This document shows positions 5,317-8,683 of a DNA stretch of 64,000 bases, piece by piece (within the stretch, counting starts at the first letter, position 1; every line of letters starts with the position of its first letter). This stretch comes from Escherichia coli O127:H6 str. E2348/69. Lineage in GTDB: Bacteria; Pseudomonadota; Gammaproteobacteria; Enterobacterales; Enterobacteriaceae. Location: assembly GCF_000026545.1 (NCBI RefSeq), contig NC_011601.1; one strand, 5' to 3'. A model generated the notes under the pieces. It ran no database searches. It worked only from the letters and a program-made list of their open reading frames with translations, and was not told the DNA's origin. The translations under genes and the position numbers were made by a program.

Positions 5317-5484
5317 ATGCACTTCCGAGTCACAGGTGAATGGAATGGAGAACCATTCAACAGAGTTATCGAAGCGGAGAACATCAACGACTGCTATGAC
5401 CACTGGATGCTGTGGGCGCAGATAGCACATGCAGACGTAACCAATATTCGAATTGAAGAACTGAAAGAACACCAAGCCGCCTGA
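5317..5484 (+). CDS. Small hypothetical phage protein (55 aa)
   Basis: ATG 5317 with GGAGA RBS; stop lies in the loop of a terminator hairpin. Confidence 0.35.
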   Translation: MHFRVTGEWNGEPFNRVIEAENINDCYDHWMLWAQIAHADVTNIRIEELKEHQAA

Positions 5485-5496
5485 TGGCGGTTTTTT
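5477..5496 (+). terminator. Rho-independent terminator upstream of torI
   Basis: CCGCC-TGAT-GGCGG hairpin followed by TTTTTT. Confidence 0.5.
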
Positions 5497-5541
5497 ATTA
5501 CCTGATTTGCAGGTTCGATTCCCTATTCGGAGATAGCACTC

Positions 5542-5742
5542 ATGCAACACGAATTACAGCCTGATTCACTGGTTGATTTGAAATTCATCATGGCCGATAC
5601 TGGCTTCGGTAAAACCTTCATCTATGACCGGATTAAGTCCGGCGACCTGCCAAAAGCCAAAGTTATCCACGGGCGAGCAAGATGGTTATATCGTGACCAT
5701 TGTGAATTCAAAAATAAGCTCTTAAGCCGCGCCAATGGGTAA
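5542..5742 (+). CDS. torI: Prophage excisionase / recombination directionality factor TorI
   Basis: 66 aa translation recognised as TorI (MQHELQPDSLVDLKFIMADTGFGKTFIYDRIKSGDLPKA...); lies next to the att core. Confidence 0.9.
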   Translation: MQHELQPDSLVDLKFIMADTGFGKTFIYDRIKSGDLPKAKVIHGRARWLYRDHCEFKNKLLSRANG

Positions 5743-5814
5743 AATAGCGGGTAAAATATTTCTCACATCTAAAAAACTCCATTCCAATCAATCCCCTGCC
5801 GCTTCAAGTAGATG

Positions 5815-5830
5815 TCTGCAGGGGACACCA
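5815..5830 (+). repeat. Prophage attR core (copy of the tRNA-Arg argW 3' end)
   Basis: TCTGCAGGGGACACCA matches the 3' end of argW; located 73 bp downstream of torI. Confidence 0.7.
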
Positions 5831-6269
5831 GATACCCTTCAAACGATATCTACCTTCACCCCGTAAAAGATAAGTTTGGCAGCACATTTGCCCTATCTAC
5901 TCATTTTTCCTGCAACAGGTTGAAATCTCAACACGGTCAGAAAACGCTGATGACTAAACAGCCCTGGGCCGGGCGATGTAACCATCACACACAATCCTGA
6001 TCGCGAAATATGGCGTGACTTGATACTTCACTCCACAATGCTTTCCTTGATGAATTCGCAGGCCCGTGATACACGGGACAGGTCGCTGAATTACGACAAT
6101 GCCCTGGAAATCAGCGAGCCGTGTATCCAGAGTACATTTGAGCGACTGTACCAGAACATGAATGAGGCGTTTGGATTAGGCGATTATTAGCAGGGCTAAG
6201 CATTTTGGTATTATTATTTTCCGGTTGAGGGATATAGAGCTATCGACAACAACCGGAAAAAGTTTACGT

Positions 6270-7517
6270 TTATATTGCTGAAGGTACTGGCGTTTCCATC
6301 ACTATTTGCTCACGTTTTTTACTCAGGAAGAAAATGCCAAATAGCAACATCAGGCAGACAATACCCGAAATTGCGAAAAAAACCGTCTGGTAGCCTGCGT
6401 GGTCAAAGAGTATCCCAGTCGGCGTTGAAAGCAGCACAATCCCCAACGAACTGGCAATTTGAAAACCAATCAGAAAGATCGTCGACGACAGGCGCTTATC
6501 AAAATTTGCCACGCTGTATTTGAAGACGGATATGACACAAAGTGGAACCTCAATGGCATGTAACAGCTTCACTAATGAAATAATCCAGGGGTTAACGAAT
6601 AGCGCGCAGGAAAGGATACGCAACGCCATAATCACAACACCGATAAGTAATGCATTTTTTGGCCCTACCCGATTCACAAAGAAAGGAATAATCGCCATGC
6701 ACAGCGCTTCGAGTACCACCTGGAATGAGTTGAGATAACCATACAGGCGCGTTCCTACATCGTGTGATTCGAATAAACCTGCATAAAAGACAGGAAAGAG
6801 TTGTTGATCAAAAATGTTATAGAAAGACCACGTCCCCACAATAAATATGACGAAAACCCAGAAGTTTCGATCCTTGAAAACTGCGATAAAATCCTCTTTT
6901 TTTACCCCTCCCGCATCCGCCGCTATGCACTGGTGATCCTTATCTTTAAAACGCATGTTGATCATCATAAATACAGCGCCAAATAGCGAGACCAACCAGA
7001 AGTTGATATGGGGACTGATACTAAAAAATATACCGGCAAAGAACGCGCCAATAGCATAGCCAAAAGATCCCCAGGCGCGCGCTGTTCCATATTCGAAATG
7101 AAAATTTCGCGCCATTTTTTCGGTGAAGCTGTCAAGCAAACCGCATCCCGCCAGATACCCCAGGCCAAAAAAGAGCGCCCCCAGAATTAGACCTGCAGAA
7201 AAATTGCTTTGCAGTAACGGTTCATAAACGTAAATCATAAACGGTCCGGTCAAGACCAGAATGAAACTCATACACCAGATGAGCGGTTTCTTCAGACCGA
7301 GTTTATCCTGAACGATGCCGTAGAACATCATAAATAGAATGCTGGTAAACTGGTTGACCGAATAAAGTGTACCTAATTCCGTCCCTGTTAATCCTAGATG
7401 TCCTTTCAGCCAAATAGCGTATAATGACCACCACAGCGACCAGGAAATAAAAAAGAGAAATGAGTAACTGGATGCAAAACGATAGTACGCATTTCTGAAT
7501 GGAATATTCAGTGCCAT
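6270..7517 (-). CDS. cscB: Sucrose:H+ symporter (oligosaccharide:H+ symporter family)
   Basis: 415 aa, 12-TMS-like; N-terminus MALNIPFRNAYYRFASSYSF recognised as CscB. Confidence 0.9.
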   Translation of the reverse strand: MALNIPFRNAYYRFASSYSFLFFISWSLWWSLYAIWLKGHLGLTGTELGTLYSVNQFTSILFMMFYGIVQDKLGLKKPLIWCMSFILVLTGPFMIYVYEPLLQSNFSAGLILGALFFGLGYLAGCGLLDSFTEKMARNFHFEYGTARAWGSFGYAIGAFFAGIFFSISPHINFWLVSLFGAVFMMINMRFKDKDHQCIAADAGGVKKEDFIAVFKDRNFWVFVIFIVGTWSFYNIFDQQLFPVFYAGLFESHDVGTRLYGYLNSFQVVLEALCMAIIPFFVNRVGPKNALLIGVVIMALRILSCALFVNPWIISLVKLLHAIEVPLCVISVFKYSVANFDKRLSSTIFLIGFQIASSLGIVLLSTPTGILFDHAGYQTVFFAISGIVCLMLLFGIFFLSKKREQIVMETPVPSAI

Positions 7518-7578
7518 AATTACCTGCCTGTCGTTAAAAAATTCATGTCCTATTTAGAGATAAGAGCGGCCTCGCCGT

Positions 7579-8502
7579 TTACTTCTCACTTTCCAGTTCT
7601 TGTCGACATGGCAGCGCTGTCATTGCCCCTTTCGCTGTTACTGCAAGCGCTCCGCAACGTTGAGCGAGATCGATAATTCGTCGCATTTCTCTCTCATCTG
7701 TAGATAACCCCGTAGAGGACAGACCTGTGAGTAACCCGGCAACGAACGCATCTCCCGCCCCCGTGCTATCGACACAATTCACAGACATTCCAGCAAAATG
7801 GTGAACTTGTCCTCGATAACAGACCACCACCCCTTCTGCACCTTTAGTCACCAACAGCATGGCGATCTCATACTCTTTTGCCAGGGCGCATATATCCCGA
7901 TCGTTCTGTGTTTTTCCACTGATAAGTCGCCATTCTTCTTCCGAGAGCTTGACGACATCCGCCAGTTGTAGCGCCTGCCGCAAACACAAGCGGAGCAAAT
8001 GCTCGTCTTGCCATAGATCTTCACGAATATTGGGATCGAAGCTGACAAAACCTCCGGCATGCCGGAGCGCCGTCATCGCAGTAAATGCGCTGGTACGCGA
8101 AGGCTCGGCAGACAACGCAATTGAACAGAGATGTAACCATTCGCCATGTCGCCAGCAGGGCAAGTCTGTCGTCTCTAAAAAAAGATCGGCACTGGGGCGG
8201 ACCATAAACGTAAATGAACGTTCTCCTTGATCGTTCAGATCGACAAGCACCGTGGATGTCCGGTGCCATTCATCTTGCTTCAGATACGTGATATCGACAC
8301 CCTCAGTTAGCAGCGTTCTTTGCATTAACGCACCAAAAGGATCATCACCGACCCGACCTATAAACCCACTTGTTCCGCCTAATCTGGCGATTCCCACCGC
8401 AACGTTAGCTGGCGCACCGCCAGGACAAGGCAGTAGCCGCCCGTCTGATTCTGGCAAGAGATCTACGACCGCATCCCCTAAAACCCACACTTTGGCTGAC
8501 AT
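7579..8502 (-). CDS. cscK: Fructokinase (PfkB family)
   Basis: 307 aa; GG motif and C-terminal DTxGAGD ribokinase-family signature; position in the csc cluster. Confidence 0.9.
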   Translation of the reverse strand: MSAKVWVLGDAVVDLLPESDGRLLPCPGGAPANVAVGIARLGGTSGFIGRVGDDPFGALMQRTLLTEGVDITYLKQDEWHRTSTVLVDLNDQGERSFTFMVRPSADLFLETTDLPCWRHGEWLHLCSIALSAEPSRTSAFTAMTALRHAGGFVSFDPNIREDLWQDEHLLRLCLRQALQLADVVKLSEEEWRLISGKTQNDRDICALAKEYEIAMLLVTKGAEGVVVCYRGQVHHFAGMSVNCVDSTGAGDAFVAGLLTGLSSTGLSTDEREMRRIIDLAQRCGALAVTAKGAMTALPCRQELESEK

Positions 8503-8607
8503 TTTTTTCCCTTAAATTCATCTGACTTACGCATAGTGATAAACCTCTTTTTCGCAAAATCGTCATGGATTTACTAAAACATGCATATTCGATCACAAAA
8601 CGTCATA

Positions 8608-8683
8608 GTTAACGTTAACATTTGTGATATTCATCGCATTTATGAAAGTAAGGGACTTTATTTTTATAAAAGTTAACGTTAAC
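8608..8683. promoter_or_regulatory. Divergent cscK/cscA control region: two GTTAACGTTAAC palindromes flanking a CRP-like site
   Basis: Perfect 12-bp palindrome at 8608..8619 and 8672..8683; TGTGA-N6-TCGCA at 8623..8638. Confidence 0.5.

Follow-up and report, generated by a model that had tools for sequence, protein, structure and literature searches.

In Escherichia coli it is well known that the csc genes replace dsdCX next to argW (Jahreis et al., 2002 and Moritz & Welch, 2006, as cited in PMC13054288, PMC4366372, PMC3032704 and PMC11251922), and E. coli-type csc loci of a few Citrobacter genomes have been suggested to derive from E. coli (PMC11251922). The same tRNA gene carries the KplE1/CPS-53 prophage in K-12, a strain of the dsdCXA type. 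A third kind of described element bears on this locus: islands of the CP4/P4 type, inserted at tRNA genes, two of which (L004 and L005) close with an intact, 846-bp DUF4942 gene preceded by cbtA, DUF5983 and DUF957; in L004 it adjoins a tRNA gene. In the Shigella SRL island, too, cbtA/DUF5983/DUF957 are followed by the DUF4942 gene (PMC6980539). Here, we analyse the DNA between argW and cscB in E. coli O127:H6 strain E2348/69, positions 5831-6269 of a 64,000-nucleotide stretch of contig NC_011601.1 (hereafter, the window). We consider it highly probable that this DNA holds a dead relic of a DUF4942 gene, of the kind whose intact form closes the CP4/P4-type islands, and that the gene was cut when a patch of csc DNA replaced part of the region.

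The junction between argW and cscB

The attR core of a KplE1/CPS-53-type prophage lies at 5816..5830 on the + strand and is at the same time the last 15 nt of tRNA-Arg (argW). This core, CTGCAGGGGACACCA, is identical to the 3' end of the annotated tRNA-Arg of a prophage-free csc+ strain (L002, positions 6001-6015), in which the tRNA gene is intact and the sequence beyond the end of argW is the same as in the window. Because the argW 3' end of L002 and the DNA downstream of it both match, 5816-5830 can be identified as the attR core, and argW is left behind at 5831. No second copy of the core was found in the 64-kb window with up to three mismatches allowed, 5816-5830 being the sole match. As in other attR sites of the KplE1 type at argW, the core is the tRNA 3' end and adjoins the excisionase-like torI (5542-5742), the last gene of the prophage, which belongs to the right arm of a lambdoid prophage and lies to the left of the junction. 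The visible arm is otherwise lambdoid, with a Rad52/Rad22-family recombinase, Kil, CIII, an anti-RecBCD protein and an ea22-like gene; since the torI/attR arm is K-12-like and the remaining arm lambdoid, the integration module seems to be common to different argW prophages. K-12, which has the same torI, matches the window up to 5830, the end of the argW CCA, but its argW flank shows no significant similarity to the window past that position (z −0.8 to 1.7). A candidate resemblance of this flank to 5831-5900, suggestive by eye, was dropped on the same values. The break in synteny that strain comparison had been expected to reveal here is therefore found, immediately after the argW CCA.

To the right of the junction, the RefSeq annotation and the ORF list place, in this order, cscB, cscK, cscA, cscR, a 219-bp 3' piece of dsdX, a frameshifted dsdA, emrYK and evgAS. 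The sucrose permease gene cscB, the first of the csc island, occupies 6270..7517 on the − strand, with its stop codon beginning at 6270 (ORF list and annotation). The locus is thus a chromosomal csc island of the argW-dsdA type, in that cscB, cscK, cscA and cscR are present, dsdC and the 5' part of dsdX are replaced, and dsdA is kept; this assignment is based on the annotation of E2348/69 and of four other csc+ strains. In E2348/69, dsdA itself (window 11620-12944) is a frameshifted pseudogene according to PGAP, its longest ORF having 399 aa (11620-12819); the intact dsdA of other strains measures 1329 bp. In 5831-6269 there is no full-length gene, which bears out the preliminary description on this point.

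The first 50 bp of the junction (5831..5880) form a spacer specific to csc-type loci. It is not significantly similar to the K-12 argW flank (z within the range given above) or to a DUF4942 gene and the DNA upstream of it (z 0.8), and it is homologous to the corresponding DNA of a divergent csc+ lineage, L010 (z 5.5). The spacer may be the tRNA-proximal arm of an integrative island that has been lost. L010 (locus 9239-9500) is E. coli SCPM-O-B-8794, the representative of a separate GTDB species. Its csc genes are 89-93% identical to those of the window and the architecture is the same; the DUF4942 relic is much shorter, and the dsdX remnant has an extra deletion of ~104 bp. Shortened junctions of the L010 type are absent from 5,426 complete E. 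coli genomes. Among the same genomes, the relic is single-copy and confined to the csc locus in 2,620-2,630 (~48%), and the left spacer together with the 5' part of the relic is always present once, at the csc locus, in 2,630. In one genome, O157:H7 AC-5 (H197, NZ_CP169546.1), the left spacer matches up to query position 117 and is then followed by an annotated PfkB kinase (cscK-like), which suggests that a deletion took the 3' part of the relic together with cscB.

A relic of a DUF4942 gene

The open frame described earlier at 6021..6191 exists and ends in the tail quoted for it, ...NALEISEPCIQSTFERLYQNMNEAFGLGDY, although its true position is one base to the left: the ORF list gives it at 6020-6190, with a TTG start and 56 aa, and the frame is open already from 5954 (5954-6190). 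RefSeq/PGAP annotates in it a + strand CDS of 50 aa (6038..6190; ATG at 6038; WP_032160942.1, 'DUF4942 domain-containing protein'), whose stop codon, at 6188-6190, falls past the end of the DUF4942 homology. The ORF is not a chance occurrence, because three kinds of search agree. Two full-length DUF4942 proteins of 281 aa match by tblastn at 58% identity over 76 aa (E 9e-25 and 3e-24); the Pfam model PF13708 is matched with 26.3 bits (E 7e-6), its gathering cut-off being 25; and blastn finds stretches of 74-78% identity within annotated full-length DUF4942 genes of ~1,800 other E. coli genomes. The suggestion that the fragment is a gene remnant with homologues in the databases is thereby upheld. 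The fragment matches the family model but lacks the complete domain (~190 positions) in an intact ORF of ~280 aa. In an exhaustive phmmer search the best full-length relatives share ~59-63% protein identity, in a protein library clustered at 50% in which a closer relative could be hidden, and the DNA identity by blastn is 78% at best. A word-indexed search for a closer intact relative returned only short fragment ORFs from csc loci. A collection of 1.84 billion representative proteins yielded no DUF4942 subfamily with members of ~150 aa that end in ...FGLGDY; where its longer proteins match the fragment, they do so at their own positions 83-151.

The relic is larger than the open frame. It spans 5881-6181 (~300 bp) and represents codons ~33-151 of 281, so that ~40% of the gene is left, without the first ~32 and the last ~130 codons. 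Two blocks, both on the + strand and in different frames, can be distinguished. Block A (5881..5981) corresponds to gene nt ~97-198 (codons ~33-66); its local DNA score against the full-length gene of L004 (5759-6604) is 37-41, which none of 500 shuffles attained (their mean being 8.5; z = 22), and it is also recovered by blastn (71.6% over 88 nt, E 9e-12) and in a MAFFT alignment. Block B (5982..6181) corresponds to gene nt ~254-454 (codons ~85-151) and is 77.8% identical over 203 nt by blastn. At the boundary between them, 5981/5982, 55 nt present in intact genes are missing, a deletion that shifts the frame. The gap is common to the E2348/69, O157 and SW07099 alleles, while in L010 the loss comprises these nucleotides and extends further; for these reasons, the deletion is probably old. 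The open frame aligns to residues 76-151 of the full-length proteins, with convincing identity from about residue 85, and covers Pfam profile positions 15-62 of 190; in a full-length protein, positions 1-189 of the profile lie at aa 87-275. Beyond the relic, 6182-6269 does not resemble DUF4942 genes in their 3' half (z = 1.0), and the stop codon of the ORF sits in sequence that aligns to DNA downstream of cscB in Citrobacter. As judged from these alignments, the terminal ...DY and stop are read from unrelated junction sequence and do not represent the native end of the gene, and both the short ORF and its stop codon are probably by-products of the junction.

Several observations indicate decay. 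Of five relic alleles compared, two (SW07099 and ES10) are interrupted by an in-frame TGA, and three (E2348/69, CFE299 and O157) have an open frame. PGAP flags the ES10 copy as a pseudogene, and its labels for the relic vary among genomes between CDS, pseudogene and nothing at all. Between E2348/69 and the common allele the relic has diverged by 6-7%, compared with 1-2% for the csc genes. In the relic frame dN is 0.070-0.077 and dN/dS 0.7-3.0; for cscB, cscA and cscR dS is 0.017-0.082 and dN/dS 0.04-0.17. The E2348/69 and O157 relics are separated by 11 nonsynonymous and one synonymous change. Since the dN of the relic is close to the dS of the csc genes, the relic changes at about the rate of silent sites; the coding sequence shows no sign of the purifying selection expected of a functional family member, and the substitution pattern indicates that the relic evolves neutrally and is non-functional. 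An Rfam scan of 5400-6600 at a permissive threshold found nothing in the junction, its sole match being a sub-threshold STnc130 inside the prophage; promoter-like matches in the region number 2 against a shuffled mean of 1.8, and terminator-like counts are also not above the shuffled level. In public assemblies we also encountered chimeric short ORFs (P0017, P0024, P0026, P0027 and P0028) that begin with N-terminal parts of other genes, TorI and a PF16473-domain protein among them, and continue in frame into the relic. In P0027 and P0028 the join falls just before ...SILHSAMH, and in P0026 a few residues earlier. These ORFs suggest recurrent deletions entering the relic from the argW side, or are possibly assembly artefacts.

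Borders of the imported csc segment

Comparison of both flanks with other genomes places the imported csc segment at ~6182-11389, that is, ~5.2 kb, with its left edge probably at about 6182-6202. This delimitation follows from an MCP vestige on the left and, on the right, a yjfF vestige fused to dsdX, so that the segment reads 'MCP-start, cscB, cscK, cscA, cscR, yjfF 3' end. On the left, 6182..6211 (− strand) is a probable vestige of the first ~10 codons of a gene for a methyl-accepting chemotaxis protein (MCP), with the start codon changed from ATG to ATA at 6209-6211. The match to MCP codons 1-10 amounts to 20 of 30 nt, as counted in the alignments, and lies next to a strongly conserved stretch; an intact MCP gene is found downstream of cscB in Citrobacter (L011 9310-10422, and also L015), and the blastn homology to L011 and L015 starts at 6187-6202. 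Between the vestige and cscB lies a hairpin (6217..6260), made of an 11-bp perfect inverted repeat, TTTTCCGGTTG / CAACCGGAAAA, with a 22-nt loop and a fold energy of −17.3 to −17.7 kcal/mol on either strand. Its arms are kept in both Citrobacter loci and in L010, and the hairpin is part of the csc segment, not of the relic. It was not called in a scan for consensus terminators; with the T-run preceding the stem and the A-run following it, on both strands, it is not a canonical intrinsic terminator.

On the right, what had been an unannotated 'spacer' between cscR and the dsdX remnant (11184..11389, − strand) is a decayed 3' part of yjfF, the gene for a galactofuranose ABC permease, with internal deletions. 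In a tblastn search, Citrobacter YjfF aligns colinearly with L010 at aa 209-230, 237-255 and 294-331 (E 9e-11) and with the window at aa 302-331 (E 0.002). The vestige is heavily decayed, with 58% identity to the yjfF of Citrobacter and likewise 58% to that of Escherichia; in 2,691 genomes it occurs solely at the csc locus, and it is highly variable, at 82-100% identity. A 4-nt microhomology, TGCT (11386-11389), links it to dsdX at nt 1121. Beyond it, the resident sequence resumes with the last 218 nt of dsdX (11385..11602, + strand; a partial GntP/DsdX permease in PGAP), 97.8% identical to K-12 dsdX from position 8457 of the K-12 locus (L003) onward. The csc segment would thus have taken the place of dsdC, of most of dsdX and of the DUF4942 gene's 3' half. 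The relic lies outside the segment, between it and argW, and is hence a mark of the recipient DNA and not part of the csc DNA. That the fragment marks the left boundary of the island, as first described, is accordingly right insofar as it adjoins the border, the edge itself being to its right, at ~6182-6202.

Origin of the junction and comparison with known systems

From these observations the following history may be proposed. The ancestor of csc+ E. coli would have carried at argW an island, or a remnant of one, ending in a DUF4942 gene and followed by dsdC-dsdX-dsdA. In a single illegitimate replacement of the microhomology type, a yjfF'-csc-'MCP patch would have come in and the DNA from DUF4942 codon ~151 to dsdX nt 1120 would have gone out; by a separate deletion, before or after, the body of the island between argW and DUF4942 codon ~33 would have been lost. 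The lambdoid/KplE1-type prophage would have inserted later, precisely at argW, leaving the scar untouched. No intact DUF4942 gene or CP4-type island was found at argW in any extant genome examined, and hence we infer the ancestral state rather than observe it. The late and precise insertion of the prophage, and the absence of any role for it in the truncation, rest on the junction being the same in the prophage-free L002, L007 and L008.

The preliminary description had tentatively read the fragment as the 3' remnant of a gene, the remainder having disappeared on the arrival of the csc island or of the prophage. That would account for an ORF at an island border that is closed by a stop codon but lacks a convincing start and a ribosome-binding site. 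However, the alignment covers codons ~33-151 of 281, within the first third of the Pfam domain, without the 130 codons of the native C-terminus; the DNA that follows is unlike the 3' halves of DUF4942 genes, the stop codon belongs to DNA shared with the Citrobacter sequence downstream of cscB, and the same fragment is present in prophage-free strains; the alignments refute this reading, and we regard it as extremely improbable. The fragment is a pseudogene scar of an ordinary kind: a 5'-proximal/internal piece of a gene, which lost its 3' end to the csc insertion, so that of the two agents of loss proposed, the csc island is retained and the prophage is not. A product kept by csc+ E. coli, in the form of a functional mini-protein or regulatory peptide of 50-79 aa, might be thought of because PGAP annotates a CDS in many genomes, the sequence is present in about half of the complete genomes and the frame is open in three of the alleles. 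Against it speak the in-frame TGA of SW07099 and ES10 and the pseudogene call in the latter, the excess of nonsynonymous changes with a dN equal to the dS of the neighbouring genes, the loss of most of the relic in the L010 lineage, promoter-like matches at the shuffled level and the lack of an Rfam match. We judge such a function to be extremely improbable; the relic persists because it is linked to csc.

It is less far-fetched, if still unlikely, that the DUF4942 piece travelled with csc, for example if csc had first entered the DUF4942 gene of a mobile CP4-type island and this island had then integrated at argW and decayed. The variable DNA begins exactly at the argW CCA, as insertion by an integrase predicts, and relic and csc occur together in all csc+ lineages examined, including the divergent L010. 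The distal genes of CP4-57-type islands point away from the tRNA gene, and the relic does so too. Yet the right end of the patch is fused directly, via microhomology, to dsdX, which is resident between argW and dsdA, and this makes replacement in situ the simpler account, and a distal tRNA repeat, an integrase and other island genes are all absent. A scan for CscB among species-representative genomes identified the same arrangement of cscB, cscK, cscA and cscR in two genomes of the Citrobacter amalonaticus group (L011 and L015). We lean, by a small degree, towards the csc island of E. coli being a chromosomal patch of ~5.2 kb copied from a Citrobacter-like genome, in which csc lay between yjfF and MCP-fbp. 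Illegitimate recombination at microhomologies would have placed the patch in a CP4-type island that was decaying at argW. The flanking vestiges indicate that csc occupied a yjfF-fbp position of the Citrobacter kind before it came to argW, and that the event was one of illegitimate recombination and not of phage or integrase activity. If this is true, the DUF4942 relic would be the sole surviving trace of an argW island that predates the split of the E. coli lineages, and the scars would record the origin and the direction of the csc transfer.

The DUF4942 label of the relic is already in RefSeq; what is modestly new are borders of the csc island at base level and a hint as to its origin. The papers compared here (PMC13054288, PMC4366372, PMC3032704 and PMC11251922) mention neither a DUF4942 relic nor yjfF/MCP vestiges. 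The 50-aa 'DUF4942 domain-containing protein' CDS in the RefSeq genomes inspected should be annotated as a pseudogene. The borders (~6182 on the left, 11386-11389 on the right) can be of use in typing the clinically discussed dsd/csc polymorphism and in engineering sucrose-positive strains, although the practical value is modest and no new mechanism or gene function is implied.

In relation to the systems described, the window fits the variable argW-dsdCXA/cscRAKB locus, in that cscB, cscK, cscA and cscR adjoin argW, dsdC and most of dsdX are replaced and dsdA is kept. The KplE1/CPS-53 attR of K-12 is matched closely, with an identical TorI product (WP_001163428.1), an attR arm of 97.7% identity and the same 15-nt core; with respect to the fragment, however, the prophage site is a mere neighbour and had no part in making it. 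The DUF4942 genes of CP4/P4 islands, of which full-length examples are SLK172 WP_001280435.1, E. coli B WP_000065752.1, L0010 of the O157 LEE-adjacent element and orf56 of the Shigella SRL island, resemble the relic at 58% aa and at most 78% nt identity over codons ~33-151, and the relic is also near a tRNA gene, starting 50 bp past the argW CCA and so immediately 3' of the tRNA, as such islands do. Unlike those genes, it is frameshifted, truncated at both ends and neutral, and it stands without the upstream cbtA/DUF5983/DUF957 module and integrase: no ORFs for a CP4/P4 integrase or for the yeeS/yeeT/cbeA/cbtA/DUF5983/DUF957 module occur in 5831-6269, and no distal direct repeat of the tRNA 3' end occurs within the 64 kb. 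The csc loci of the Citrobacter amalonaticus group have the gene order of the window and 80-83% nt identity across 6202-11195, including the hairpin downstream of cscB, and are flanked by ytfR-ytfT-yjfF on one side and by MCP, fbp, mpl and pmbA on the other. In Citrobacter, yjfF and MCP are intact; in E. coli only vestiges of them are left and the patch is at argW. A Citrobacter-like origin of the argW csc genes would run opposite to the direction suggested in PMC11251922.
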